A stretch of 64,000 nt of DNA, taken from Candidatus Woesearchaeota archaeon (GTDB lineage: Archaea > Nanobdellota > Nanobdellia > Woesearchaeales > GCA-2686295). Positions 17,789-62,377 of the stretch are shown here, in pieces. Positions within the stretch are counted from its first letter, which is position 1; the number at the start of each line of letters is the position of its first letter. The position numbers and the translations under genes were made by a program. Location: NCBI GenBank assembly GCA_937912225.1, contig CALDOJ010000036.1, forward strand, positions 31,191-95,190. Reading direction: 5' to 3'. The notes beneath the pieces were generated by a model. That model did not search any database, was not told where the DNA came from, and saw only the letters and a list, made by a program, of their open reading frames with translations.

Positions 17789-18925
17789 TTATTCGTCGGA
17801 ACTTTTAAACATATCTTCTGCAGTTGTTGGTTTTGTTTCAGATTCTTGTTCTGTTTGTACAACTGGTTCAGCTTTAGCAGGTGCAGAGTCTATAGATGCA
17901 AGTTCTGCAGGTGCAGTTTGTTTAACAGGTTCTTCTTCAACAGACTTTTCTTCGCTTTCACCTTCAGCTTTTACTTCTTGCTTTTTTCCTCCAAACAAAC
18001 CAAAAAGTTTTTTCTTTTCTTCAGGCTTAGATTCTTCTTCACTGTTTCTTTCTTCAGCTTCTGATTCTTCCAAATTAACCTTATACTTCTTTTGTAATTT
18101 ATCAGTTAATTGTTTAAACATTAATTTTAAATCAGTTTTTGTATGTTTACTTCTTTCGTCTAATAATTTAATAACTGTGCCTGTATGTTTCTCAAAATCA
18201 TTAAATTTGTTAAGCAAATCAACGAATTCTTTTTTCTCAGCTTTCTGATCAGTTTGAACTCTCATTTTATCAAAATCAGCTTGCATTTTTTTGAACTCAC
18301 GATTTATATCTTTAACTTGTGAATCAAATTTATCAAATTCAGAAAACTTTTTCTCAACATCTAAAAAAATCGTTTCAACTCTATCAGCATGTCTTTCAAC
18401 AATTGACTCGACTTTTTTAAGATTAGCCAACTCATTTTTTATTTCTTCATGTAATTTTATTATTTGCTCAGTTCCTTTGTAAACATCCATTTGACCACGC
18501 ATACCTTTCAACTGAGACATGATATCCTTCATCAAAGATTCATTTCCTTCAATGTTGGCCTTAAGAGCTTCAATTTTCCCATCTGTTTTTCGAAGTTCAG
18601 TCATGAATACACTTGGTTGAACTGTTTCTACTTCATCAATGGCTTTTGTGGCTTTTACTTCTACTTTTGAAAAAGCTTGTTCTAAATCATTAAGCATACC
18701 TCTAATCTCACCCATTTGTTCAGTTACAATTCCAAATCTTTCAGTAGTGGATTTTCTTATCTCATTTAAAGAATCAATCTGACCTTTTATTTTAGCCAGT
18801 TCTATTTCTACTTGTCCACCAAGATTAGCACCTCTATTTTTAGGGGATGATTCTTCTATTTCCTGCTCAGCAGGATTCTCATCACCTTCTCCTATAGTAG
18901 GGCCTGATTTATTCCAAAAAGCCAT
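17789..18925 (-). CDS. Coiled-coil protein with acidic N- and C-terminal tails
   Basis: Long heptad-like Lys/Glu/Leu core and acidic low-complexity ends. Overlaps the upstream gene by 17 nt. No family recognised. Confidence 0.45.
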   Translation of the reverse strand: MAFWNKSGPTIGEGDENPAEQEIEESSPKNRGANLGGQVEIELAKIKGQIDSLNEIRKSTTERFGIVTEQMGEIRGMLNDLEQAFSKVEVKATKAIDEVETVQPSVFMTELRKTDGKIEALKANIEGNESLMKDIMSQLKGMRGQMDVYKGTEQIIKLHEEIKNELANLKKVESIVERHADRVETIFLDVEKKFSEFDKFDSQVKDINREFKKMQADFDKMRVQTDQKAEKKEFVDLLNKFNDFEKHTGTVIKLLDERSKHTKTDLKLMFKQLTDKLQKKYKVNLEESEAEERNSEEESKPEEKKKLFGLFGGKKQEVKAEGESEEKSVEEEPVKQTAPAELASIDSAPAKAEPVVQTEQESETKPTTAEDMFKSSDE

Positions 18926-19775
18926 TATCTACCTCTTTTTTTTCTTTTAATATGTTTGACATTATTCTCTTATCCCTTATCCCTTTAATGTTTTTCGCTA
19001 ACTCAGGTTGATGAAAAACAAATTCAATCCACATTGAAAAATCATTATCATAGTTTCGTGTATGAAACTCAAAATCCTCAGGGTTCATAAAACTTAAAGC
19101 AGTTATTAAATCTTGTATTGATGTTAAAAGCTTCCCACTTTTCAAACGAAAGAATTTTTCAGGATCTATTACTAGTTCAAGTTTTGGTTCTGTAACTGTT
19201 TCATCAACTTCACTCTGAGGCTCTACTTCTAGCTTATCAGATTCTGTGGTTGTGACTGTCTCTTCAGAAGTATTTTCTGGCTTAACTGGTTCATTCTGAG
19301 GCTCTACTTCTGGTACATAAGAAGTTTCCTTCTGAACACTAGAACTTTCAGTTCTTTGTGTACTAGTAGCTTCGTTACTATTTTCTTCTTTTATATCTAA
19401 ATCTTCTCTGTTTGAATTATTCTCTTTCATTCCTTCTTCAAAAGCTTGAGCCTTTTCTTCATTTAACTTTTCTTTAATCTTTCTTTCAACTTCTGCTTTA
19501 ATATCTACCAAAGGTAATCTTGATTCTTCAATTAATTCCTCTTCTGAAAATTTTAAAATATTCTTAATAACTTCATAGTCTTCTTGTTTTCGAGTATACT
19601 GAGCCCATCGTAATTTTGAATCAAGACTTCTAAGATGAAAGTCTGCTATTGAAGGATTATGACCTTCTTTTCTTAATTCAGTTATTCTTGACTTTAACTC
19701 TCGAACATGACTTCTCAAATCCTCTGTTAAAATTTCATTTTCTTTATCCGAAACTAATTGTTTATTTTTACTCAT
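18909..19775 (-). CDS. Acidic protein with C-terminal copy of the NDF-x-W[VI] ~70-aa domain
   Basis: C-terminus KFFRLKSGKLLTSIQDLITALSFMNPEDFEFHTRNYDNDFSMWIEFVFHQPELAKNI aligns with the domains in the two upstream genes. ATGA overlap. Confidence 0.5.
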   Translation of the reverse strand: MSKNKQLVSDKENEILTEDLRSHVRELKSRITELRKEGHNPSIADFHLRSLDSKLRWAQYTRKQEDYEVIKNILKFSEEELIEESRLPLVDIKAEVERKIKEKLNEEKAQAFEEGMKENNSNREDLDIKEENSNEATSTQRTESSSVQKETSYVPEVEPQNEPVKPENTSEETVTTTESDKLEVEPQSEVDETVTEPKLELVIDPEKFFRLKSGKLLTSIQDLITALSFMNPEDFEFHTRNYDNDFSMWIEFVFHQPELAKNIKGIRDKRIMSNILKEKKEVDNGFLE

Positions 19776-20602
19776 TTCAATTTCTCATTTACTTCATCAT
19801 TCAAGTCATTTATATCAGAATCAAGTGCTCTTACTTGTCCTTCTACAAAACTTGGTTTTCCAAAAAATAATTTTCCTAAAAATTTATTATTACTAATTTT
19901 TTCTTTTATTTTTTGAAAAAAGTTTTTCTTTGATTTTTCTTTTGAATGAACTGATTCTTTCTTTTTAACTTTCTTTTTCACTTCCTTTTTTACTTCTTCG
20001 TCTTCCTTCTTAATTTCTTCAGCTTCTTTTTCAACTTTTTTCTCAGATTTTTCCTCTCTTGCTTCTTTTGATTCATCAAGTGCTTTTTGAATTTCTACAA
20101 CTTCAGGACTATTGTCTTCTTCAATTGTTTTATTCAAATTAATTTCTGGCAATTTAGAATCAGAATCAACTTCTTTTTCTGGCTCAACCAAGGGTTTAAC
20201 TTCTTGTTCATCAGCTTCTTTATTTGAATCGTCAGAAGTTTCATCTTTGAACATATCATCAATTTTCTTATTAGATTCTTGTTCTGATTCAAAAGGTTCT
20301 TTCTTAACAGGTTCTGATTCTGTTTTCTGATTTTCATCCGGATTCTTAATTAAATCGTGAAAATAATCATCGATTAATTTAATCATAGAATCCTTATCTT
20401 TAGCTTTTTCTAAAACATCCGCCAGTTCATTATTTTTGAAAACACCTTTAACCCAAATAGCAAAATCATTCTTCTCTGAATTAACATGCAAAGCGAATTC
20501 TTCATCAGATCCTTTATCTAAAAAAACTCTAAATTCACCTATAGTTCTCAAAACTTCTCCATTGCCTAAATAAAAATATTCCTCTTGTTTCAAATTCCTC
20601 AC
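19772..20602 (-). CDS. Acidic/Lys-rich protein with N-terminal copy of the NDF-x-W[VI] ~70-aa domain
   Basis: N-terminus EEYFYLGNGEVLRTIGEFRVFLDKGSDEEFALHVNSEKNDFAIWVKGVFKNNELADVL. Start is ambiguous: GTG 20602 lies inside GAGGTGA, and TTG 20593 is an alternative. Confidence 0.5.
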   Translation of the reverse strand: MRNLKQEEYFYLGNGEVLRTIGEFRVFLDKGSDEEFALHVNSEKNDFAIWVKGVFKNNELADVLEKAKDKDSMIKLIDDYFHDLIKNPDENQKTESEPVKKEPFESEQESNKKIDDMFKDETSDDSNKEADEQEVKPLVEPEKEVDSDSKLPEINLNKTIEEDNSPEVVEIQKALDESKEAREEKSEKKVEKEAEEIKKEDEEVKKEVKKKVKKKESVHSKEKSKKNFFQKIKEKISNNKFLGKLFFGKPSFVEGQVRALDSDINDLNDEVNEKLK

Positions 20603-20639: not shown

Positions 20640-22829
20640 TTAACCCTCCTGTAAAACATTAATTAATTCATCTTTTGAGTTTGCTGTTTGCATTCTATCG
20701 GCTAATTGGTCGTTGTGAAATACTCCTCGAACCCAACTAGCAAAATCGTTTTTATCATTAGACACATATTGTTTAAAATCATCATCATTAGTTTCTCTTA
20801 AATACTCGACTAATTCAAGTACGGATTTTATTTCTTTACCGCTTTGTAATCTAAAATATTGATCGGATGAAATGTCTTTTTTAACAACAATTTTTTCTAA
20901 ATCAGCATCTAATTCCTCTTCTTCCTTTTTCTTTTCAGTTCGAGATTCAGAATTTTCAACAAGTTTAGTTTCTGTTTCTAAATGTTCTTCTAATTCTTTT
21001 TTATCTGAATTTTCCAATTGAACAGGCTCTTCTGCTTCTTCTTTTACAGCAGTTTCTGGTTTAACTTCTGATTCAGAATCATCATCAGCCATCGCAGCAA
21101 ACGCTTTTTCTTGTTCTGTTATAGGCTCTTTCTTTTCAGGTTCAACAGCTTCTGCAAGTTTTGCCTCCTCTTCCTTTTCCTCTTTTTCTTCTACAGCTTC
21201 AACTGCTTCTTTATCAGATGTTGAGTCAAACCACTTTTCAGATTCTAATAATTTTTTCTCTTCATCAGTTAACTCTGGAAGTTTCTGTTTTTTACTCCTT
21301 AAATCAATCAAATCTAACATTTGTTGTTTATCTGGTTTAACCATCATATGCTGTGCTAATTCTTTATCTCCAACAGCATCTTTAACCCAATCAGCAAACT
21401 CATTCTTTTCTTTATTTACATGCTGATCATAATCACTTTGTTTCATCGCAGATAACTCATCATATAATGCTTTCAAACTAATAACTAACATACCATTTAC
21501 TAAACTTAGAATTTTATCAGGCGACACTTCTTTTCTGAAAAGATCAACTTCAACTGTTTCACCATCAGCGCTGCCACTAGCAGCTTCAACTGCTTCAGCT
21601 TCTTCTCTTGATTGTTTTGCTGCGTTAATAGATGCTTTAAAGTCATCTTCAGATACAAGTTTCTTTTCTTTCTTCTTAGGAACTTTTCCAATTTTTTCCC
21701 AATTTTTCTTAACTCTAGGTCTTAATCCTTCTAAATATACTTCAACCATGTTAAAATTTCCAACTTTTACTTTATCTAAAGATAATTTTAGTTCCAATTT
21801 CATATCAAATACATCAATTTCTAACTCTTCTAATTGTTCAAGTTCATACACTAATTGATCAATTTCATCATTGTATTTGTTATACTTTTCAAGTTCTTCA
21901 TCTGTTAATCTTTGTACTGAATGAAGGATTGGTCTGAATGTTACGAAGTATGGTTGACCTCTATTATATGACGCGTTTTGAACCATTCCACTTCCAACAC
22001 TGGCTTTAACTAATGATTTTAAAACACTATCACCATACTTAGTTTTAATTCTATCTAAGTCTCCTTCATCTCTAGTTCTCATTTGAACTTCTGTGTTAAT
22101 GTTCGCTTTAATCTGACCTACGAAGTCGGCCAAAACCTGAGATACTAACATAATCCCTATTCCCCACTTACGAAACTCTCTACATCCTCTTTCAATCTGT
22201 ACGAATCCATCACCACTACCTCCAAACTTAGGTAGAATTCTGTGAATCTCATCATAAATAATCATGAGTTTTAATGGCTCACTTTCAGTAGGTCTTTCAT
22301 CAAAAATTTGTCTAATAGTATTAGCTACAACTAAATCAATTCCTTTCGGATCCAACTTATTCATAGCATAAATTTGAATTTCGCCAGGTTTTGCATTCTT
22401 CTGAATTTCAATTACTTCTCGAGGATTAGTTATTTGTTTAACATTTCCATTGAATGCTTTTGCATCTTTAGGTTTCATTCCAAATCCAGGATAATACTTC
22501 AACATTCCTTTTTCTTTACATGGACGCAACATTCCGCTCCATTGAGCTGTAGGGTCAAAGGCAATTACCGCTACATCTTTTAACAAACATTCTTCTATTA
22601 TTACTTGAGCTGAAATAGATTTTCCTCCACCAGTTGACCCTGCTACAATTGAATGAATCTTTAACTGGTCTAAATCAAAATAAGTTTTATGGTCTGTTTC
22701 AGCAATTTTTCCCCACCAACCACTTCTAGGTCCTGGTTTTGGTAACTGAGTATAATCAACTTTAAGATGGAACCTTTTATTGGAATCCATTTTTTTCCAG
22801 ATTATAAAAGCTATTAATGCAATTGTCAA
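20640..22829 (-). CDS. Membrane-associated HerA/FtsK/VirB4-clade P-loop ATPase with two C-terminal NDF-x-W[VI] domains
   Basis: Walker A AGSTGGGKS, Walker B LMIIYDEIH and MLVSQ following it. Acidic low-complexity spacer. Two repeat domains, at residues ~431-508 and ~655-729. The called TTG start leaves only a partial TM (see finding on the in-frame TAG). Confidence 0.6.
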   Translation of the reverse strand: MTIALIAFIIWKKMDSNKRFHLKVDYTQLPKPGPRSGWWGKIAETDHKTYFDLDQLKIHSIVAGSTGGGKSISAQVIIEECLLKDVAVIAFDPTAQWSGMLRPCKEKGMLKYYPGFGMKPKDAKAFNGNVKQITNPREVIEIQKNAKPGEIQIYAMNKLDPKGIDLVVANTIRQIFDERPTESEPLKLMIIYDEIHRILPKFGGSGDGFVQIERGCREFRKWGIGIMLVSQVLADFVGQIKANINTEVQMRTRDEGDLDRIKTKYGDSVLKSLVKASVGSGMVQNASYNRGQPYFVTFRPILHSVQRLTDEELEKYNKYNDEIDQLVYELEQLEELEIDVFDMKLELKLSLDKVKVGNFNMVEVYLEGLRPRVKKNWEKIGKVPKKKEKKLVSEDDFKASINAAKQSREEAEAVEAASGSADGETVEVDLFRKEVSPDKILSLVNGMLVISLKALYDELSAMKQSDYDQHVNKEKNEFADWVKDAVGDKELAQHMMVKPDKQQMLDLIDLRSKKQKLPELTDEEKKLLESEKWFDSTSDKEAVEAVEEKEEKEEEAKLAEAVEPEKKEPITEQEKAFAAMADDDSESEVKPETAVKEEAEEPVQLENSDKKELEEHLETETKLVENSESRTEKKKEEEELDADLEKIVVKKDISSDQYFRLQSGKEIKSVLELVEYLRETNDDDFKQYVSNDKNDFASWVRGVFHNDQLADRMQTANSKDELINVLQEG

Positions 22830-22850
22830 TAAAGAACCAATTATTAATCC

Positions 22851-24614
22851 CTATTGCCAGAAAAATAATCCAAAGAAATACAACTGCCAAAATGGTGTTA
22901 CTACTTCAAAAATTTCACTTGTTCCAGCGCTAAATCCCAAATAATTAGCAGTTACTCTAATAATATAAACTCCTCTGGGTGCATCTTTAGGAATCTTAAC
23001 TGTTTTTAATAATGAAAAAGATGTTTTCAATAACACATTAGTACTATAAGTCCATAAAGTTGTGTTACCAGTTTCATCTTGAATAGTATAAAATAATGAA
23101 ACAGGATATTCTTGATCAGATAATAAATTTTTCAAATCTGTTTTGAATTGTAAATCTTCATTTGGATGAACTTGTTTCTTAGAAGAATCTAATTCCATTA
23201 ACAAAGCTTGTACTGGAAGTTGATTTGCAGATATTAATTCAACAGTTAATGGAATAGATGCATTAAAATCTCCTGTTATTTCTATAGTTCCATTATAAGT
23301 TCCTAATTCTCCTCTTCCAAAAATAGTTGGAGTAATACTACCCCTTTCATTTGGAGCAACTAATAATTTATTCTTATCCAACTCAACTAAATTAGCAATA
23401 TCACCTGTTACTTTGAAAAATGCCTGGGTTGTTCCTTCTTTATAACTATAAACAACTATTTCTTCTTGTAAGAAGTTTCCTAATCTAAGTTTTCTATTAA
23501 TAGTATTAAGTGAAATAACTATATCTGTTCCTTCAACTCTTTTTGGTTGTTCTACTTGTGGTACGAGTGGCGCTTCACCAGGACCAACATCATCACCAGG
23601 ACCAACATCTCTACCAGGACCAATACCAGTAAAATCGTTAGGTGTTACTGCTTGAACCAATATGATATTATGAATTGTTGTTTGATTCTTTACAATTGAA
23701 ACATTGTTTGCATATACATCATAACCTGATTTTATTGCAAAAATAGTATATTGTCCTTCAGGAGCTGTAATATTATAAAAACCAAACGTGTCAGATGCAT
23801 CATTATAATTCGAAATATGTATAATTACATCAGATATTGGAACTCCTGCTTCAGTTGTTACAATTCCTGCAATATTTCCTGGATTTGGTAAATCACCTTC
23901 TCCTTCAGCACATATATCATATGGATCTGGAAAGAAATAATATCTTTGCTCTGTAGCATTTGGAATTGGTAATATCATTTGATAATTTAACTGTCTTCCG
24001 TTAAAACCATTAGTCCAATTTCCGAGTTTTGGTGCTACAAATATTAATTCTCCATTACCATCTTGAAGAACACCCAAAGTGAAATTTTCAATACTTCCAT
24101 CCCCTCCATTAAGTGTTGTGGCTGGAATAGTTATTGGAGTATTACCTATTTCAATTGTAATATTATCTTTAAAAGTATTTGTTCCTGATAACTTTGCAGT
24201 GAATGAATCATATTGGTCCATTCCTAAAAAAGTATCTAGCACCGTTAAATTAGCTGGCTGAATATTTACAAAATCTAATAATTGAGGCATAACTGTACTT
24301 GCATACACTTCATGATCAATATCTGTTTCTAAACAATCAAATAATAAATTTGCTTCTAAAGTTTCCAATCCTTCTAAATCATAAAATGCTTCATTTTGAA
24401 ATCCTGGAACTCTTACTGCATAACCATATACTCCTGACCATAAAAAAGCAGGTAAACTCATATCAATATTTACTTCATAAATTACTCCTCCTTTCCCTGA
24501 AAAAGTATTAGTTGCCCAACCAATAAACTTGCTTGCAAAAACCAATCCGAATATAGCAAGAGCTACTAATAAAACTAATAATACTGTTTGTGCAGCTTTC
24601 TCTACATGTTTCAT
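22851..24614 (-). CDS. Secreted/anchored beta-rich envelope protein (carboxypeptidase-regulatory-like + Ig-like modules)
   Basis: N-terminal TM/signal TVLLVLLVALAIFGLVFA. GIVTTEAGVPISDVIIHISN...GQYTIFAIKSGYD. GPGRDVGPGDDVGPGEAP linker. Short hydrophobic C-terminus ends at TAG. Confidence 0.55.
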   Translation of the reverse strand: MKHVEKAAQTVLLVLLVALAIFGLVFASKFIGWATNTFSGKGGVIYEVNIDMSLPAFLWSGVYGYAVRVPGFQNEAFYDLEGLETLEANLLFDCLETDIDHEVYASTVMPQLLDFVNIQPANLTVLDTFLGMDQYDSFTAKLSGTNTFKDNITIEIGNTPITIPATTLNGGDGSIENFTLGVLQDGNGELIFVAPKLGNWTNGFNGRQLNYQMILPIPNATEQRYYFFPDPYDICAEGEGDLPNPGNIAGIVTTEAGVPISDVIIHISNYNDASDTFGFYNITAPEGQYTIFAIKSGYDVYANNVSIVKNQTTIHNIILVQAVTPNDFTGIGPGRDVGPGDDVGPGEAPLVPQVEQPKRVEGTDIVISLNTINRKLRLGNFLQEEIVVYSYKEGTTQAFFKVTGDIANLVELDKNKLLVAPNERGSITPTIFGRGELGTYNGTIEITGDFNASIPLTVELISANQLPVQALLMELDSSKKQVHPNEDLQFKTDLKNLLSDQEYPVSLFYTIQDETGNTTLWTYSTNVLLKTSFSLLKTVKIPKDAPRGVYIIRVTANYLGFSAGTSEIFEVVTPFWQLYFFGLFFWQ

Positions 24615-27553
24615 GATGCAATCCTCATTTGTAAAGTTTTTATTTTTTCAAACAACTCGGTTTTATAATCTTCATCTAATCTCTTATACACTTCTTCTAG
24701 CTGATGATAATAGTATCTTGCTTTTCCAATATTATCAGCTTTTATATTATTCTCAATATCTGAAACTAATTTCTGTGAATAACCATGATCCAACTTAGTA
24801 CATAAATTCCTAATTTTTTGATAAACTTCATTTTTTGAAGGAGTAGATAATTTTTCATAATACAATTTAATCTCTCTATAAATAAAATGAGCTTTATCAA
24901 GGTCATGAACTTCTAAATTATCAAGAGCATCATTTATCAATAAGTTAATAGTATGAATTTTCTTATCGCCAAATAAAACATAGTAAAAGAATCTCATCTT
25001 ATCTATTCTAATATGACTATGCCCTGCATATACTAATACTAAAACCATTATTAAAACTATCAAATAACCTTTTTTATCCATATTAACATTAAAGTCAAAT
25101 ATGGAATTTCCAGTTATAGAAGTTACCGCTTTAGTATATGAATCTTCAAACAAGACTGTTTGTGCTTTATCAATGTTCTCCAAATCTATTTGTTCATCAA
25201 AATAATAAATTATTTTTTGAGGGTTATCAAATTCAATTAATGGATCTTTCTCCAAAATTTTATGATTTGTTATTATTGTTAAATCATCGGTTGTCTCTGC
25301 TAATTCTTTTGGTATAGATTCTACAACTCTTAATTTATATGTGCTATTCACATATTTTAATTCTTTAACCACTAAAGTAATAGTTTTCTTTGTTCCATCA
25401 AAGTATTCTAATTCAACATTTCTGGCAGTTGTTGATATAGTTGCTTTTGATTGAGTTAATTTACTTGCTTCAAAAAATTTCTCTTTATCTAAATATTTTT
25501 TTATAGTTGAATATTTATCAGATACTTCTTTTAATTCAGGATCTCGAATATATTTAATAAACGCTTTATTTTCTAACACATTCACATTAACAATTATAGA
25601 ATTATAAGTATCAGATATTTTAGTTTCTAATGTTTGTATTTTATCTTCTTTTTCTTTTTCAGATAAAACATTATTGTAAGTTGCATCATTTATATCTCTA
25701 TAAGCTCTTTGTATTGTTACAATTGCACTTTTGATATTTTTCTCTATATCTAATACATCTATTACCCGTCGTTCATGAAGTCCTTTAGTTGATAAAGTAT
25801 CAATTATTGCGTATAATTCATCAGTAAATTCTGTTTCTGAAAAAGTTGTTTTTACGTCTATTACTTCATCAATTATTTTAAAAGTTCTTTCTTCTGTTGC
25901 TTTTGAATTCTTATCCGAATCTTCACATTCAATTTTCCATTTATAATCTTTATAATCTAATCCTGTCAATGAAAATATTTGTTCTGTGTTATCTGAAACT
26001 ATTTTTGTTCCTTTCTTTGTATACCAACTTTCATCCTTCTCTGCAGTATACAACACACAAGTTGTATCTCCTTGATCAGATACTTTAAATTTAACATCTA
26101 TACTTTTCGAATTAAATTCTTGTTTATCTGCAGGTGAAATAAGTTCAATACTTGGCGCAGTTACATCTTTTCCTTCTATTTCTGCAAGGTAAGTAATATT
26201 TTCCCTTAACCAGATTTCATCATAGAGAACTTCATAATTAGATTTTAAAACCGTTAATCTGTAAGTGCCTCTTGAAATATAAAATGTGTATTGACCTTTA
26301 CTATTTGTTATTCCTTCTCTATTTGCTAGTTCGATTCTTGCTCCAGATATAACACTTCCAGAATTTATATCTTTAACAGTTACAGCCAATTCCAATACAT
26401 TCTTAACAGTTATTGTTGTATTAAGAGACTTAGAATTTCCTTCTTCGTCAGTAACTGTTAACTTTTCAATGTATGAACCAGAATTTTCATAAGACATATT
26501 TATAGTATCATTAGTTTTAGTTGTTCCATCGCTTAAAGTCCAAAGATAAGTATATTCACCAATTCCGCCATTTACATAAGCTTCTAGTTCTGTTGGTTCA
26601 TCAACATCAACAGATTTATCTCCAACAACAGAAATTGTTATACTATTTTCAACTTCAAAACTTATTACATCAGTTAAAGTTGTATTTTGATATTCTAACT
26701 CTGTATTTGCAGCATAAGTTCCTACTTCTGTTGTGTAAGTCATTGATTCTGTTCTTGGAAATGTTCCATTTGTTATGGTTATTGTTTCTCCTAATGTGAA
26801 CCATCCTCCGCTTGAAGTTCCTATTTCAATTGTCATATTTGAACCATTTAATGCATTTATTGTGAAAGTTCCTGCTTCTCCTAAGCTGTAAGTTTCTTTA
26901 TTCAAACTAATGTTCAAGAATGGTGTTTCAATTTCTTCTTCAACGGTTTCATTCTCTATTGTAAATATTCTATTGCCACTAATATTTGCATTCCCAACAC
27001 TATCTTGACAACTTATATTCCAGTAATGCATTCCACTATCTGCAGAAATATTAACTATTTTTGAAGTTCCATTAATTGCAGTTATTGCTTGTATTGCATC
27101 ATCTAAAGTTAATATACAATTCATGCTTGTTGCAAAGTTATCTGTTGCTACGAAGGTTACATTCGTTAAATTAGTTAAGTTTGCATTATTGATTGGATTC
27201 TCTAAAACAATAATTGGTGCTGAGAGATCAATATTTATTGTTCGCTCAATAATACTTTCGCTGTTGTTCTCATCTGAGCAGTTAATATACCATTCATGAA
27301 CTCCTTCGGTCAAGGTTTCAGTAAATGTATTACTGCTTTCTGCTGATTTACTTTGTTCTTCTATTTGGTCTATAAATAAACTACAAGTGGTAGAATTAGT
27401 GTAATTAGTGAGTGTGAATGTAAAGTTAACATTTGAAGTATTATACACTGCATTATCTACAGGTACAATATCAGACATTGTTGAAGAAATTATTTGAAGA
27501 CTTAAAACTAACATGACCATCAACATAATTAATTTTGCTGATTTACTTCTCAT
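24611..27553 (-). CDS. Large surface protein (repeated Ig-like modules, PKD-like, carboxypeptidase-regulatory-like), TM anchor and helical cytoplasmic tail
   Basis: Signal peptide KLIMLMVMLVLSLQIISS. Repeats with a C...W[YN]I.C.D pattern. PKD-like EYTYLWTLSDGTTK...LTVTDEEGNS. TM GYLIVLIMVLVLVYAG. ~130-aa helical tail. Confidence 0.6.
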   Translation of the reverse strand: MRSKSAKLIMLMVMLVLSLQIISSTMSDIVPVDNAVYNTSNVNFTFTLTNYTNSTTCSLFIDQIEEQSKSAESSNTFTETLTEGVHEWYINCSDENNSESIIERTINIDLSAPIIVLENPINNANLTNLTNVTFVATDNFATSMNCILTLDDAIQAITAINGTSKIVNISADSGMHYWNISCQDSVGNANISGNRIFTIENETVEEEIETPFLNISLNKETYSLGEAGTFTINALNGSNMTIEIGTSSGGWFTLGETITITNGTFPRTESMTYTTEVGTYAANTELEYQNTTLTDVISFEVENSITISVVGDKSVDVDEPTELEAYVNGGIGEYTYLWTLSDGTTKTNDTINMSYENSGSYIEKLTVTDEEGNSKSLNTTITVKNVLELAVTVKDINSGSVISGARIELANREGITNSKGQYTFYISRGTYRLTVLKSNYEVLYDEIWLRENITYLAEIEGKDVTAPSIELISPADKQEFNSKSIDVKFKVSDQGDTTCVLYTAEKDESWYTKKGTKIVSDNTEQIFSLTGLDYKDYKWKIECEDSDKNSKATEERTFKIIDEVIDVKTTFSETEFTDELYAIIDTLSTKGLHERRVIDVLDIEKNIKSAIVTIQRAYRDINDATYNNVLSEKEKEDKIQTLETKISDTYNSIIVNVNVLENKAFIKYIRDPELKEVSDKYSTIKKYLDKEKFFEASKLTQSKATISTTARNVELEYFDGTKKTITLVVKELKYVNSTYKLRVVESIPKELAETTDDLTIITNHKILEKDPLIEFDNPQKIIYYFDEQIDLENIDKAQTVLFEDSYTKAVTSITGNSIFDFNVNMDKKGYLIVLIMVLVLVYAGHSHIRIDKMRFFYYVLFGDKKIHTINLLINDALDNLEVHDLDKAHFIYREIKLYYEKLSTPSKNEVYQKIRNLCTKLDHGYSQKLVSDIENNIKADNIGKARYYYHQLEEVYKRLDEDYKTELFEKIKTLQMRIAS

Positions 27554-41003: not shown

Positions 41004-42293
41004 CTATATTAAGAATTCTTCTCGCTCACTTCTTTCAGAAAGTTCTCCTCTTAAATTCTTTTCAAATAATTCTTTGACGTCTTTTTTATGATTCGATAAT
41101 AACCATGCAAGCTTGATAAATGCTGTTTCTGGAGTCATGTCTGAATAATTTCCAATCACTCCTGCTTTAATTAAATCTCTTCCAGGAGAATAAACATTCA
41201 TGTCAATTCTTCCATAAATTGTTTGAGGCGCAACTACTACAGGCATTTTTTTAGCTAAGCTTTGAACTGCTTTCAAAATTTTCTCATTTTCACCAGTGAA
41301 TTCATCAACTTTCATACTCGGAATATGGCCTATTCCTAAAAGTTCAATAACTAATCCATCAAAGTTTTTGAAAGCTTCAAATTCAGAAGCATACATGTGA
41401 ACATGAGGTTTAATTAAACCAATTTTTAATTTTTCATCAAATAATTTAAGAGTTAATTTTTTCTTTAAATCTTTCTTTTCATAAGTTGTTGCAAAAGTCA
41501 CAGTTTCTTTTTCATAATTAATTCTTGCAATTGGACCTGCATTAATTGGTCTAAAAGCATCTCTTCTTGAAGTATGCATTTTTCGAACTTTAGTTCCAGG
41601 CAAAATCCAACAAATTTTATCATTAGTATTTTCATGCATACAAACTCCAACTCCAGAAAAATCCGTCTTAGTAATAAACAATGCAGCTGATAAAAGATTC
41701 ATTGCTGAATCAGTACTTCCTCGGTCAGAACTTCGTTGACTTCCAACAATTATAACTGGAATTCCAAGTCCTTCAAAAGCAAATGAAAGAGCAGCTGAAG
41801 TATAATGAATAGTATCTGTTCCTTGAGTCAAAATAATTCCATCAACTCCTTTTTTTACTTCTTCAGCAACCGCTTTAGCTAAAATATTATAATGAGGAAA
41901 ACGCATCATTTCTGATTGCATATTTCTTACAAGTTTACTTTTAATATTTGCTAAACCTTTAATTTCAGGAAACAAATTTAGTAAATCATCCTCTGTAAAC
42001 TTTGCAATTACAGCGCCTGTTGAATAATCAACTTTTGAAGCAATAGTTCCACCAGTATGAAGTATAGAAATGGTTTTTAAACCTTTTTTCATTACAGGTT
42101 TTGAACTTTTCTCAGAAATTTCTTTATATTTTTTTAAGACTTCAATCTTTTTAATTTCAGATTTTTTCAAACCAACATTATATCCGCTAACTAATTTTAA
42201 GAAAATAATGTTTGAATCTTCTTCAGGCATTAAAACACCTTCTAAAACATCATTTTTACAGAATACTTTTACCTTATCACCTACGTTAGCCAT
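41004..42293 (-). CDS. gatD: Glu-tRNA(Gln) amidotransferase subunit D (asparaginase-like)
   Basis: ILHTGGTIASKVDYSTGAV, LTQGTDTIHYT. Ends with TAG directly abutting gatE. Confidence 0.9.
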   Translation of the reverse strand: MANVGDKVKVFCKNDVLEGVLMPEEDSNIIFLKLVSGYNVGLKKSEIKKIEVLKKYKEISEKSSKPVMKKGLKTISILHTGGTIASKVDYSTGAVIAKFTEDDLLNLFPEIKGLANIKSKLVRNMQSEMMRFPHYNILAKAVAEEVKKGVDGIILTQGTDTIHYTSAALSFAFEGLGIPVIIVGSQRSSDRGSTDSAMNLLSAALFITKTDFSGVGVCMHENTNDKICWILPGTKVRKMHTSRRDAFRPINAGPIARINYEKETVTFATTYEKKDLKKKLTLKLFDEKLKIGLIKPHVHMYASEFEAFKNFDGLVIELLGIGHIPSMKVDEFTGENEKILKAVQSLAKKMPVVVAPQTIYGRIDMNVYSPGRDLIKAGVIGNYSDMTPETAFIKLAWLLSNHKKDVKELFEKNLRGELSERSEREEFLI

Positions 42294-49757: not shown

Positions 49758-50954
49758 TTATAAAGTTAACCCGTAATCATCCGAAAGAGCTTCGGAGTGT
49801 GAACCTTTAAAAAATTTAAATGAAACAATTAATCCTAAAAATAGTAATAATCCGTTCACAACAAACAAAACTCCAAATCCATAAATATCAACTATAAGTC
49901 CGCTAAAAATATAGCTTAAAAAACCACCAATTTTTGCTAATGACATGTATGAACAAACAACTTCTGCTTCTTTATTTAACCGTTCACCAATATCTGACAT
50001 TAAAGTCCATGCAGATACATTCCAAATTGAAGACCCTATTCCTAAGAAAAAAAGTATTACTAATAATATTGTATAGTTTGATGCAAATGCTAATAATAGT
50101 AATGAAAAACTATAAATTAAAATTCCTACAAACATAACTTTTGACCTGCCAAATTTATCTGCTAAATGACCAAAATAGAATTGAAATAAATGTGCTATTC
50201 CAATAAAAAATATTGCTACTCCAATAAAACTATAACCTAAATTTAATTTTTCAATAATAAATAATGGTAAAAAAACTTTAATTGCAGGTTGACTTGCATG
50301 TGCAACAAAGCCAAGTATCGCCATTCCTCTTAATGGTCTGATTGATAAAAAATTCTTTAAACTATCTAAGAAATTAAAATCATTTTTGTGAATCTTTTTC
50401 CTTAATTTTGGATTTCTAAAAACAAGTATAAAGCTTAATAGAATTAAAAGAAATGCTGTTAATAAGAATGGTGCTTTAACAAATAATTTATCGGCTAGAA
50501 CTCCGCCAAGAACTGGTGCAATAATTGCACCGATGTATTGTATGCTAAGACTAATTCCAGAATATTTTCCTCTATCTTTATCTGAAAGATGATCTTCAAC
50601 TTTAGCTAATGCAATTAAAGTTACGATAGTTATTGCAAGTGCATCAAGAATTCTTGCAAATGCAATCAAAGACCATGAAGTTCCTGAAAGATAAATTATT
50701 ATTGCAAGAAGCTGTATCATTAAACCAAATATTATTATTCTAAGCTTTCCAATATCATCTGCTAATTTTCCAAAAATTGGTGAAAAGAAAATTATTGCAA
50801 GCGGCATAACTGAGAATATTAATCCTAATTGAAAATTATCAAAACCTAAACTCTTAATATAAGGAGCTAAAACCGGTTCTATAAGAAAAATTGCGAAAGT
50901 AAAAAATACACTTATGCCTGTAGCTTTTATATATTCTCTAAAGTGCAATTTCAA
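49758..50954 (-). CDS. MFS transporter
   Basis: About 12 TM segments. GKLADDIGKLR and GHLADKFGRSK loop motifs are typical of MFS. Confidence 0.75.
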   Translation of the reverse strand: MKLHFREYIKATGISVFFTFAIFLIEPVLAPYIKSLGFDNFQLGLIFSVMPLAIIFFSPIFGKLADDIGKLRIIIFGLMIQLLAIIIYLSGTSWSLIAFARILDALAITIVTLIALAKVEDHLSDKDRGKYSGISLSIQYIGAIIAPVLGGVLADKLFVKAPFLLTAFLLILLSFILVFRNPKLRKKIHKNDFNFLDSLKNFLSIRPLRGMAILGFVAHASQPAIKVFLPLFIIEKLNLGYSFIGVAIFFIGIAHLFQFYFGHLADKFGRSKVMFVGILIYSFSLLLLAFASNYTILLVILFFLGIGSSIWNVSAWTLMSDIGERLNKEAEVVCSYMSLAKIGGFLSYIFSGLIVDIYGFGVLFVVNGLLLFLGLIVSFKFFKGSHSEALSDDYGLTL

Positions 50955-50960
50955 ACCTCT

Positions 50961-52277
50961 TTATTCGAAAATTTTCTCTTTTTTATGTAGAGCAGATGGA
51001 GCTTCTCCTCCATGCCAAGTAAATCTTGGCCTGATTCTTATAGGATACATCTTCTCGTTAGTATCATCAAATATAATTGCAGAACCTTTTTCTCTAGGAA
51101 GATCATTTAATTGAGTTACTAAACCTTCACGCATATAAGACTGCATCAACATACCAAGTGCTTCAGTATCAAGCTTTGCAGTAATTCTATGAGCAATAAC
51201 AGTATCTGACTGAGTCATAACATCAGTATGAATTTTTCCTGGTTGCTGTGTTGCAAGAATTAAAGAAATTCCTGGTTGTCTTCCTTCTCTAAGAATTGTT
51301 ACAAGAGGGTCTGTTGCAGTAGTTTTTCCTTCTAATGGTAAAAATTCATGAGCTTCATCAATAACAAGCCATACAAGAGGAGATTCTTGTTTCTTAATTG
51401 CTTCATCTCCAAAGTAATTTACTGATTTATGAATGTCATGATACTCTTCTGATTTTCTAGCAACCATTCTTTCAATAAAAAGTTTTTGAGCAACTAAACC
51501 AATAACTAAATTCTTTATATTCCAAGAACCAGGCATTGTTGCATAACAAGATACATCTAAAACAGTTACTTGTCCACCTTTTGCTAAGTCACTAAGCGAA
51601 GTTCCTTCTTCATCAAAAACACCCCAATTATTTGCGTTCAAAAATTGATTTTTGGCAGCATTCTTTACTGAAGTATCAGCATCTTTGTTTTGCTTAATTG
51701 CAGAAAGTATATCTTTCATACTAAAGTCATCATTGTTTTCTTTTAAGTCGTGAATAACTGATTCAATTAATACACCAACTGGTTCGTGAGGACTAATTCC
51801 AAACGAGATGTTCCAATCTTCAGCATTTAATTCTGAAGGTTTTATTGAGAAAGGATGATCGGTTGGGATACCTTCATCTTTATATTTTTGATAGTAACCA
51901 ACAGGAGTGTATATTTGAACATCTAAACCTTTACCTTCTAGTTTCCATTCATCCAACAAATCTTTATCTTTCTTATTAGGATATTTCATAGTCCAATAAA
52001 TACCCATGGTATCAAGCATGATAACAGATATATTTTGTTTAATGTCTTTTGGCAAATTAGCCATACCTTCTGCAATAACACCCATAGTGTAAGATTTTCC
52101 GGATCCTCTCTTACCACATACAAAAATAACGTGTGAACGAACCATATCTAAAAAAACTTGATTAGAAAGAGAGGTAGTTCGACCCATCTTAACATAATGT
52201 TTTGCTAACAAAATAGTTCCTTCTGTTCCAAACTTTCTTTTGTCAGATTCACTTCGACCAACAACTATATCATACAT
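50961..52277 (-). CDS. HerA-like (DUF87-type) P-loop ATPase
   Basis: Walker A GKRGSGKSYT, Walker B WLVIDEAHEF, LILATQQP. A promoter-like AAATATTTATATT lies 22 nt upstream of the ATG. Confidence 0.75.
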   Translation of the reverse strand: MYDIVVGRSESDKRKFGTEGTILLAKHYVKMGRTTSLSNQVFLDMVRSHVIFVCGKRGSGKSYTMGVIAEGMANLPKDIKQNISVIMLDTMGIYWTMKYPNKKDKDLLDEWKLEGKGLDVQIYTPVGYYQKYKDEGIPTDHPFSIKPSELNAEDWNISFGISPHEPVGVLIESVIHDLKENNDDFSMKDILSAIKQNKDADTSVKNAAKNQFLNANNWGVFDEEGTSLSDLAKGGQVTVLDVSCYATMPGSWNIKNLVIGLVAQKLFIERMVARKSEEYHDIHKSVNYFGDEAIKKQESPLVWLVIDEAHEFLPLEGKTTATDPLVTILREGRQPGISLILATQQPGKIHTDVMTQSDTVIAHRITAKLDTEALGMLMQSYMREGLVTQLNDLPREKGSAIIFDDTNEKMYPIRIRPRFTWHGGEAPSALHKKEKIFE

Positions 52278-52334
52278 ATAGCTTATTTAGTAGAGAACTA
52301 ATATAAATATTTATTCTAATTGGATAGTAGAGTC

Positions 52335-57525: not shown

Positions 57526-58068
57526 ATGGACGAGTATATTCATGAGATAAAAATTCCAAAGGCAAGAATCGCAGTACTTATAGGTACAAAAGGCGAAACT
57601 AAGAACGAATTAGAAGAATATACTAGAACTAGCATAGATGTTGATTCTAAAGAAGGAGAAGTTAAAATTAGTGGAACTGATCCTATTAAACTTTACGCTG
57701 TTAAAGAGATGATTCTTGCAATTAGTAGAGGGTTTAATCCTGATATTGCTAAATTATTATTAAAAGCAGATTATGTTATTGAAATTGTTTCATTAGCAGA
57801 GTTTTCTGACAAAAAAAATCAATTAGATAGAGTTCGTGGACGAGTAATTGGTAAAAAAGGAAAATCCAGAGCTACAATCGAAAACTTAACCGATACTTAT
57901 GTTTCTGTTTACGGGAAAACTATTTCTATTATTGGTGAATCTCATAAAGTAACTCTTGCAAGAAAAGCTGTTGAAAATTTATTAAAAGGCAGTACACATT
58001 CAGCAGTTTACAAATGGCTTGAAAAGAATCGTCAAAAAATGAAACAAGAAGAAATAACTGGTTTCTAA
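57526..58068 (+). CDS. KH-domain RNA-binding protein (Dim2/Pno1-like)
   Basis: Two KH-like GxxG segments (IGTKGETK, IGKKGKSR). Adjacent to the RIO kinase, as is typical in archaea. Confidence 0.7.
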   Translation: MDEYIHEIKIPKARIAVLIGTKGETKNELEEYTRTSIDVDSKEGEVKISGTDPIKLYAVKEMILAISRGFNPDIAKLLLKADYVIEIVSLAEFSDKKNQLDRVRGRVIGKKGKSRATIENLTDTYVSVYGKTISIIGESHKVTLARKAVENLLKGSTHSAVYKWLEKNRQKMKQEEITGF

Positions 58069-60429: not shown

Positions 60430-61507
60430 CCCAGTACTACAAAAAATACATGAAGAAGCTAAGAAAATTTTTGAAGCTATCAAAAAGAAAGAAAAACCTT
60501 CATTAGAATCCCCTGTTAGAAGTTTAAGTAATGTTAATTATGATGCCGATATTGGTTATTTTGAATTAAGTGGAAATATGAAAAAAAGAACTCTTGCAGC
60601 GTCAACTGTTAAAACTTTTGCTCAAACTTTAAGAATGATGGGTTTGTCAAAAGAGATCATTGAAAAAAATGATATTGCAACAAAAAGAGAAGCTTATTAT
60701 GTTAGTAAAAATTGGGGTGATTCAAGATTTAAAGAACAACCAGAATCAGATACTGTAATGGATGACATTGAAGCAATGTTTGAAGTTAATCGTGAACAAC
60801 TTGGTTTTATTCCTGAAGAAAAAGGCGGAGATATCGCTGGAAAACTCGTCGTAATTGATAAAGATCCTGATTCTGGTAAAGAAATAAGAATTGATTGTAC
60901 AAAATTCGGAAGTGGTGCTTATTCTATTCCTTCAAGTGTTGAAGAATTAAAATTTGAAACTAATGCTCAGTTTATTTTAGCTATTGAAACAGCCGGTATG
61001 TTTCAAAGGTTAGTAAAACATAATTATTGGAAAAAAGCTAATTGTATTCTTATTAGTATGGGTGGAGTTCCAACTCGTGCTTGTCGTAGATTTATTAGAA
61101 GACTTAGTGATAATGTTAATATTCCTGTATTTGTATTTACTGATGGTGATCCGTATGGATTTTTGAATATTTATCGAACTTTAAAAGTTGGTTCTGGTAA
61201 CGCAGCTCACATTAACAAATATTTTTGTGTTCCAAAAGCAAAATTTATTGGTATTACTCCTCAAGATATTATTGATTATAAATTGCCAAGTCATCCTTTA
61301 AAAGAAGTTGATATTAAAAGAATTAAAGACGGTATTAAAAACGATCCATTTGTTAAATATCATAAATCTTGGCAAAGAGCTTTAAAACAACAAATGCAAA
61401 TGAAGGTAAGAGCCGAGCAGCAAGCACTTGCAAAACACGGTTTAAACTTCGTAATTTCTAATTATTTGCCTGAGAAATTAAAAAATCCTGATTCTTGGCT
61501 TGATTAG
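60422..61507 (+). CDS. top6A: DNA topoisomerase VI subunit A (Spo11-like)
   Basis: REAYYV (catalytic Tyr context), Toprim LAIETAGMF and FTDGDPYG. ATG 60422 overlaps the top6B stop (ATGAATAA). Confidence 0.9.
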   Translation: MNNPVLQKIHEEAKKIFEAIKKKEKPSLESPVRSLSNVNYDADIGYFELSGNMKKRTLAASTVKTFAQTLRMMGLSKEIIEKNDIATKREAYYVSKNWGDSRFKEQPESDTVMDDIEAMFEVNREQLGFIPEEKGGDIAGKLVVIDKDPDSGKEIRIDCTKFGSGAYSIPSSVEELKFETNAQFILAIETAGMFQRLVKHNYWKKANCILISMGGVPTRACRRFIRRLSDNVNIPVFVFTDGDPYGFLNIYRTLKVGSGNAAHINKYFCVPKAKFIGITPQDIIDYKLPSHPLKEVDIKRIKDGIKNDPFVKYHKSWQRALKQQMQMKVRAEQQALAKHGLNFVISNYLPEKLKNPDSWLD

Positions 61508-61714: not shown

Positions 61715-62377
61715 ATGCTTAAAACAGATTTACATTTACATGCAGGTGAAGATATTCATCATAAATTAAAATATTCTTCTAAAAAATTAATTGATTATGC
61801 TGCGAGTAAAGGTTTCAATGTCTTAAGTTTAACATTTCATGAACATGTTTATTTCAATAAAAAAATTGAATCTTATGCTAAGAAAAAAGGCATTCTGCTT
61901 ATTCCTGGTGTTGAGCGTTATATTGAAGATAAAGAAGTTCTTATTTACAATGTTACAAAGAAAGAGTATAAAAATTTGAATACTTTTGATGATTTACGAA
62001 AGTTAAAAAAACGAAAGAATATTTTGATTATTGCTCCTCATCCTTTCTTTCTAAGATCTAATTGTCTTGGCAAAAAACTTGAAGAGAATATCGATTTATT
62101 TGATGGAATTGAATACAGTCATTTTTATCTTTCTTGGTTTAATAGAAATAAAAAAGCTGTAAAAATTGCTATAAAATATAATAAAACTTTAATTGGAACT
62201 AGTGACGCTCATAACTTGCATCAAATGAATAGCACTTTTTCTTTAGTTAATTCAAATCCAACTATTAAAAGTTTTTTTAATGCTGTTAGAAATAATAAAA
62301 CACAACTTATAACAAAACCTATTTCTTTATCTCGTTTCTTGTGGAGATCTATTAAAGTAGTTCTTGACCTTGAATAG
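61715..62377 (+). CDS. PHP-domain phosphoesterase
   Basis: TDLHLHAGEDIHH, IIAPHPF, GTSDAHN. ATG follows AAGGAGGAG. Confidence 0.65.
   Translation: MLKTDLHLHAGEDIHHKLKYSSKKLIDYAASKGFNVLSLTFHEHVYFNKKIESYAKKKGILLIPGVERYIEDKEVLIYNVTKKEYKNLNTFDDLRKLKKRKNILIIAPHPFFLRSNCLGKKLEENIDLFDGIEYSHFYLSWFNRNKKAVKIAIKYNKTLIGTSDAHNLHQMNSTFSLVNSNPTIKSFFNAVRNNKTQLITKPISLSRFLWRSIKVVLDLE

Follow-up and report, generated by a model that had tools for sequence, protein, structure and literature searches.

On the minus strand of the 64,000-nucleotide stretch of Candidatus Woesearchaeota archaeon DNA analyzed here (contig CALDOJ010000036.1, positions 31,191 to 95,190; hereafter the window), an open reading frame (ORF) of 587 amino acids (aa) stops at a TAG codon, and an ORF for an ATPase of the DUF87/HerA type follows in the same frame after only seven further sense codons. 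The question raised by this arrangement is whether the TAG separates two genes, is read through to give a single protein, or interrupts a gene that was continuous until recently. Comparison with homologues and with a nearly identical strain argues for the last of these: the two ORFs are very probably the halves of one gene, encoding a HerA-type ATPase with two transmembrane (TM) segments, that was recently hit by the nonsense mutation W588*, with probable loss of function.

Re-reading of both strands gave the same ORF layout, TAG position and in-frame read-through sequence as the initial annotation of this locus. The 5' part of the disrupted gene, as defined by the ORF list and its translation, comprises 587 codons on the minus strand (24614..22854) and is terminated by the premature stop TAG at 22853..22851, codon 588. 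Seven sense codons (GGA TTA ATA ATT GGT TCT TTA) lie between this stop and TTG 22829..22827, the mechanical start of the 729-aa ATPase ORF, which ends at 20640. Translated over the stop the frame reads ...EIFEVVTPFWQLYFFGLFFWQ, stop, GLIIGSLLTIALIAFIIWKKMDSNKRF, and the junction context translated in the same way is ...GTSEIFEVVTPFWQLYFFGLFFWQ, stop, GLIIGSLLTIALIAFIIWKKMDSNKRFHLKVDY.... In addition to the TTG, the in-frame candidates for initiation downstream of the TAG are ATA 22844..22842, ATT 22841..22839 and ATG 22790..22788. Gene callers begin the 3' part of the disrupted gene at this ATG (20640..22790, minus strand, 716 aa), and the deposited protein P0014 is its exact product.

One gene in the homologues and in a sister strain

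The junction was searched with a 686-aa query in which an X, standing for the stop, joins the 340 residues before it to the first 345 residues after it. Of the 279 proteins that the search retrieved, the best ~50 each span 96-100% of the query within one chain of 1000-1200 aa, at 43-58% identity; the gene's best relatives carry the annotation Woesearchaeota, Pacearchaeota or Nanoarchaeota. The initial annotation had proposed an alignment of orthologues as a check, and when the 92 hits whose Walker A motif is preceded by at least 130 residues were aligned across the junction, the two ORFs proved to be fused, with a hydrophobic sense residue in the column of the TAG in 92 of 92 (L32 I20 V20 W8 A6 Y3 P2 F1 M1) and a stop or gap in none. 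Among the ~100 homologues examined, not one is split at the junction. The same holds at five distant genome loci with 44-45% identity, each of which has, among the matches listed, a single ORF that matches both ORFs of the window.

The uninterrupted gene is also present in a sister strain. The two products predicted from the window allele, P0121 (587 aa) and P0014 (716 aa), share a 90% identity cluster with P0124, a protein of 1312 aa encoded on an 11.6-kb contig (L004) of NCBI assembly GCA_041294365.1. This contig is 99.1-99.9% identical to the window and carries TGG (Trp) at the position of the window TAG codon, between identical 31-nt flanks; across the junction P0124 reads ...GLFFWQWGLIIGSLL..., containing FFWQWGLIIGS. 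By pairwise alignment, the 3.9-kb gene differs between the two strains by two single-nucleotide polymorphisms (SNPs) and one 36-nt indel. The first SNP is the stop itself (window 22852; TGG in L004, TAG in the window), and the second, at window 21010, is ACT in L004 and AAT in the window (N1202T). The in-frame indel affects a GPG(R/D)DV tandem repeat in the region between the two TM segments (the ectodomain; 23588..23623, minus strand), and is present in the window and absent from L004. Because all other relatives have a sense codon at this position, the direction of change is from TGG to TAG, and because the gene has only one other substitution, the nonsense event is very recent. G-to-A transitions of this kind are typical of AT-biased mutation. 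A recent nonsense mutation had been listed among several explanations for the TAG, and the existence of a strain that is two substitutions away in the gene and has TGG now supports it.

The stop codon and the second transmembrane helix

TM segments were located with a Kyte-Doolittle scan (19-residue window, threshold 1.6), a crude method. In the 587-aa product the scan finds the N-terminal segment alone (TM1, 24534..24587, minus strand), and in the ATPase ORF it finds none, whether the start is taken at the TTG or at the ATG; a second segment (TM2) appears in the joined protein only, where hydropathy peaks at 2.39 at residue 597. This comparison of split and fused products bears out the earlier claim that neither half holds a complete second TM.

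The description of the junction itself requires some adjustment. Joining the two halves does create the hydrophobic run of ~34 residues that had been noted, but this run is not one single helix, as its first 14 residues are a juxtamembrane motif (PFWQLYFFGLFFWQ, 22854..22895, minus strand, read from the translation). In homologues the order across the junction is the motif PF[YW]xxxx[FL]G.[IL]P[VL]W, in many cases containing Pro, Arg or Lys, followed by ~20-23 hydrophobic residues, a Lys/Arg cluster, the sequence K[KR][FY]HxKV[DE]..LPKPGPRS and then the ATPase. Since the first 14 residues of the run align to the juxtamembrane motif, the stop takes the place of the first or second residue of TM2. 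As judged from the aligned sequences, the TAG is located at the predicted outer (extracellular) edge of TM2 and not in mid-helix. The codons of TM2 and its basic anchor (GLIIGSLLTIALIAFIIWKK, 22791..22850, minus strand) are placed by translation, hydropathy, AlphaFold and the homologue alignment, and once the TAG terminates translation no canonical start codon lies 5' of them.

The N-termini of the homologues are rich in Lys and Arg and are followed by a TM segment, and TM2 is followed by the Lys/Arg cluster; by the positive-inside rule, these flanks indicate an N-terminus inside the cell, TM1, an ectodomain of ~540 aa, TM2 and a cytoplasmic ATPase. The earlier proposal of a TM, a large ectodomain, a TM and a cytoplasmic ATPase in one protein agrees with orthologues that are single proteins of 1000-1300 aa.

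Given this topology, the effects of the mutation can be predicted. A G-to-A transition at window 22852 (coding strand), which makes TGG into TAG, would end translation at codon 588, just as TAG codons elsewhere in this genome do, and the product would be a TM1-anchored ectodomain with an aromatic juxtamembrane stub, lacking both TM2 and the motor. The ATPase would not be made, or would be made at a low level, in soluble form, through re-initiation at TTG 22829 or ATG 22790. A start at the TTG would leave half a TM (11 hydrophobic residues before KK), and a start at the ATG would give a soluble protein; in either case the motor would be uncoupled from the membrane and from the ectodomain, to which it is kept joined in ~100 homologues. 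The W588* allele has most likely lost its function, and would represent a loss-of-function allele or early pseudogene that segregates within a Woesearchaeota-like DPANN archaeon population of the Baltic Sea.

Alternatives to a nonsense mutation

A stop that differs from the intact allele by a single base, in contigs some of which have low coverage (~2-7x by their names), could in principle be a sequencing or assembly artefact of a genome that in reality has TGG, and an assembly error was among the explanations offered initially. This is now highly improbable, as the same TAG occurs in nine of the nine other contigs that were fetched besides L004: seven of these (L001-L003 and L005-L008) match the window at 100% identity for 2-7.5 kb, and the other two (L014 and L015) have two SNPs each with respect to the window; all nine are otherwise 99.9-100% identical to it. 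They originate from samples ERR2206774 (listed among Baltic Sea metagenomes), ERR2206788, JGI 3300074305, ERZ890703, ERZ890810, ERZ27060442, ERZ23486368 and ERZ1283812, and represent at least two sequencing runs and several pipelines (Logan, SPAdes-type NODE, MEGAHIT k141 and JGI), which excludes a one-off assembly error; moreover, the TAG site is outside any homopolymer. On L014, a contig of ~2x coverage (ENA ERZ23486368, ALNE18-1 scaffold_12123), the TAG haplotype has another nonsense codon, TGA in place of TGG, at window 24438 (L014 position 328). This change, W59*, breaks the 587-aa ORF into 58 + 505 aa (P0122 and P0123), and may reflect either a read error or continuing gene decay.

Programmed read-through or recoding of the TAG, as pyrrolysine or in some other sense reading, would give the full-length fusion directly, and it would account for a continuous frame in which the downstream sequence encodes a TM that the protein needs. 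As in stop-codon recoding systems such as Pyl-decoding archaea and TAG-reassigned phages, an in-frame TAG lies inside an expected single protein. TAG is also, as stated initially, the rarest stop in the window, where the 48 ORFs with 150 codons or more end in TAA (30), TGA (11) or TAG (7); the statement that it occurs at four sites only did not hold, since it also ends ORFs at 58065 (minus strand), 61505-61507 (plus strand) and 62375-62377 (plus strand). However, rarity of TAG is expected at ~29% G+C, and in this genome TAG is a proven stop in conserved genes. GatD, matched by its NCBIfam equivalog model over residues 3-419 of 420, ends at TAG 41004; CDC48, matched to residue 729 of 733, ends at TAG 42489; and the terminal TAG of TopoVI-A follows a Toprim domain matched over 170/170 positions. 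Because all three end at TAG where the models of their families end, TAG is an ordinary terminator here. Furthermore, no relative conserves the TAG of the ATPase gene, neither the nearly identical strain with its TGG nor the 92 homologues with their sense codons, and Arg-CCT is the sole tRNA in the 64-kb window, a suppressor tRNA not being found within it. Recoding is for these reasons an explanation to which almost no probability can be given, and the split products of this gene are no evidence for stop-codon recoding in DPANN archaea.

Two other junctions in the window bear a superficial resemblance to this one and were rejected as split genes. At TAG 41004-41006 (minus strand), ORFs of 443 and 477 codons form a second apparent in-frame TAG junction, which is a normal GatD followed by GatE; GatE comes directly after the stop in the same frame, starting at GTG 41003 or ATG 40991, and the pair provides a control for termination at TAG. 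At TAA 50961 two ORFs abut in frame, namely a second, smaller DUF87/HerA-like ORF (50961-52286, minus strand, 441 codons, with a weak Zot match) and an MFS transporter (49758-50960, minus strand), and these look like two unrelated genes and not like a split gene.

Several observations weigh against a plain loss of function. The TAG allele is the common one in public data (by an index count, 16-18 contigs have the split products versus 1 with the intact protein), so it is at least tolerated; neither half shows further decay in the window; and low-level natural read-through and re-initiation may occur. The first two of these points could be taken to mean that the gene is functionally split and maintained in that form, with a TM1-anchored ectodomain and a re-initiated, soluble HerA-like ATPase that cooperate or serve separately. 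An in-frame ATG is available 20 codons past the stop, and coupled re-initiation is made plausible by the tightly packed or overlapping operon genes of this genome; for instance, the stop of the upstream gene and the start of the disrupted gene share 4 nt (ATGA, 24611-24614). A functional split is nonetheless unlikely, in view of the ~100 homologues in which no such split is seen and of the loss to the ATPase of TM2, which every homologue keeps. With two SNPs of divergence no further decay would be expected, so that the divergence is too small for intact halves to signal selection, and W59*, on its one low-coverage contig, points towards decay. Neither ATG 22790 nor TTG 22829 is preceded by more than a weak GGA or GGT match resembling a Shine-Dalgarno sequence, as compared with GAGG or GGTG upstream of the 980-aa gene described below, the 587-aa ORF and GatE; this is unfavorable to restart, and as a candidate ribosome-binding site for either codon the weak match is uninformative. 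Near-cognate initiation at the ATA or ATT, which had been suggested, has no support and is not needed. It is likewise improbable that the gene is still alive and that W588*, the commonest allele in Baltic Sea assemblies, is a tolerated or even favored variant. Cells would then display the TM1-anchored ectodomain but no motor, produce the motor on its own through re-initiation, or form traces of full-length protein through leaky read-through of the TAG, and the allele would constitute a population-level on/off or dosage switch for a surface-coupled HerA-like translocase in DPANN archaea.

Read as a recent nonsense mutation in a single gene, the locus is an ordinary strain-level nonsense polymorphism in a widespread DPANN gene family. 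It has the usual features of such a polymorphism or of an early pseudogene: one base change produces a premature stop, the ORF is uninterrupted in the nearest relative and in all orthologues, and gene callers report two 'hypothetical proteins'. What sets it apart from the usual case is that the allele recovered most often in assemblies of public samples is the truncated one; otherwise nothing essential differs. With regard to annotation, P0121 and P0014, which have been deposited many times, are fragments, and should be flagged as belonging to a disrupted gene.

The ATPase and its neighborhood

The initial annotation likened the topology of the joined protein to that of coupling proteins and FtsK-like translocases; the ATPase is a HerA-clade member of the HerA/FtsK superfamily, belonging to neither the FtsK nor the coupling-protein family. 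The Pfam models DUF87 (PF01935; 36.1 bits, cut-off 23.2) and HerA_C (23.5 bits, cut-off 22) both pass, whereas FtsK_SpoIIIE (PF01580) scores 17.2 bits, below its cut-off of 24; the NCBIfam models SXT_TraD (19.3 bits versus 366) and CedD (20.5 versus 600) are far under threshold, and the Pfam scan gave no T4SS-DNA_transf or TrwB match in the window protein at E <= 0.01. Walker A (GSTGGGKS, 22617..22640, minus strand) and Walker B (MIIYDE, within LMIIYDEIH at 22242..22268, minus strand) are intact. For the 400 residues that follow the stop, an AlphaFold model made with an alignment of 50 sequences has a mean predicted local distance difference test (pLDDT) score of 92, and its residues 2-23 form one N-terminal helix that corresponds to TM2 (pLDDT ~90). 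The best PDB matches of this model are the HerA hexameric translocase structures 4d2i and 8xau (E 1.5e-11), with many other HerA chains next; TcpA, a coupling protein (rank 29), and the FtsK motor (rank 48, E 1.3e-7) match the fold less well.

The protein thus shares with Sulfolobus HerA (4d2i) the P-loop ATPase core with its Walker motifs, the two Pfam matches and the closest structural similarity, with the qualification that identity is only 12-20% and the TM-score to the query ~0.5. It differs from HerA in that the ATPase is placed behind two TM helices and a large ectodomain, where HerA has a soluble HAS-barrel N-terminus, and in having a long acidic tail with DUF5752-like modules. A Pfam scan of flanking ORFs gave no match to NurA, and with no adjacent nurA the protein is considered HerA-like and not the repair HerA. 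FtsK/SpoIIIE and the type IV coupling proteins (TrwB/VirD4/TraD/TcpA) resemble it in combining a membrane anchor with a cytoplasmic RecA-like translocase; however, these families are not known to have a large extracellular domain placed between two TMs, and no conjugation or division genes adjoin the ATPase gene among the flanking ORFs scanned. By analogy with HerA and with pumps of the FtsK type, a ring embedded in the membrane is the most likely form of the intact protein, and cytoplasmic ATP hydrolysis would be linked mechanically, via TM2, to the ectodomain or to a substrate crossing the membrane. A PADLOC scan returned generic HerA and mad8 P-loop matches only and no defense context, and a literature search on DUF87 or HerA in DPANN archaea found nothing relevant. 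The intact family, with its order of TM, ectodomain, TM, HerA-fold ATPase and DUF5752-like tail, is widespread in Woese-, Pace- and Nanoarchaeota, and is a candidate surface-coupled translocase that is uncharacterized; the TAG itself adds nothing new in this respect.

Within the ectodomain, a CarboxypepD_reg-like beta-sandwich domain is suggested at 23658..23873 (minus strand) by a Pfam match of 28.2 bits, below the gathering score. The DUF5752-like module of the ATPase tail, a weak Pfam match of ~60-70 aa, occurs twice at the Glu/Lys-rich 3' end of the ATPase (21345..21518 and 20691..20864, minus strand) and once in each of two small downstream ORFs on the same strand, at the N-terminus of ORF 19772..20602 (~20400-20600) and at the C-terminus of ORF 18909..19775 (~18930-19130). 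Its pattern, F.L.nG..v.sl.eL...l..m.d..F..HVn.eKNDFA.WV...f....La, is also found in the homologues of the ATPase. The second of these small ORFs (window 18909-19775) encodes 288 aa in the window and 320 aa in L004 (7587-8549), which has an insertion of ~90 nt. Downstream of this ORF the identity of L004 to the window is 99.1%, so the two strains diverge more outside the disrupted gene than inside it.

Upstream of the disrupted gene, and overlapping it as described above, is a gene for a 980-aa protein (24611-27553, minus strand) with a signal sequence or TM, a PKD domain, a C-terminal TM and a cytoplasmic tail. Weak homologues of this protein are encoded near the ATPase gene at two distant loci (L011 and L012), which suggests a loosely conserved neighborhood of surface proteins around the ATPase gene. 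The window as a whole is archaeal and DPANN-like, encoding GatD/GatE, CDC48, TopoVI-A and adenylate kinase. Farther along the minus strand, between 5840 and 17763, is a dense block of sensory genes that is unusual for a small genome of the DPANN type; it includes a 1464-aa protein carrying seven or more PAS domains, a dCache histidine kinase of 1166 aa, a dCache-HAMP protein, and binding proteins of the NMT1/THI5-like and SBP_bac_3 types.

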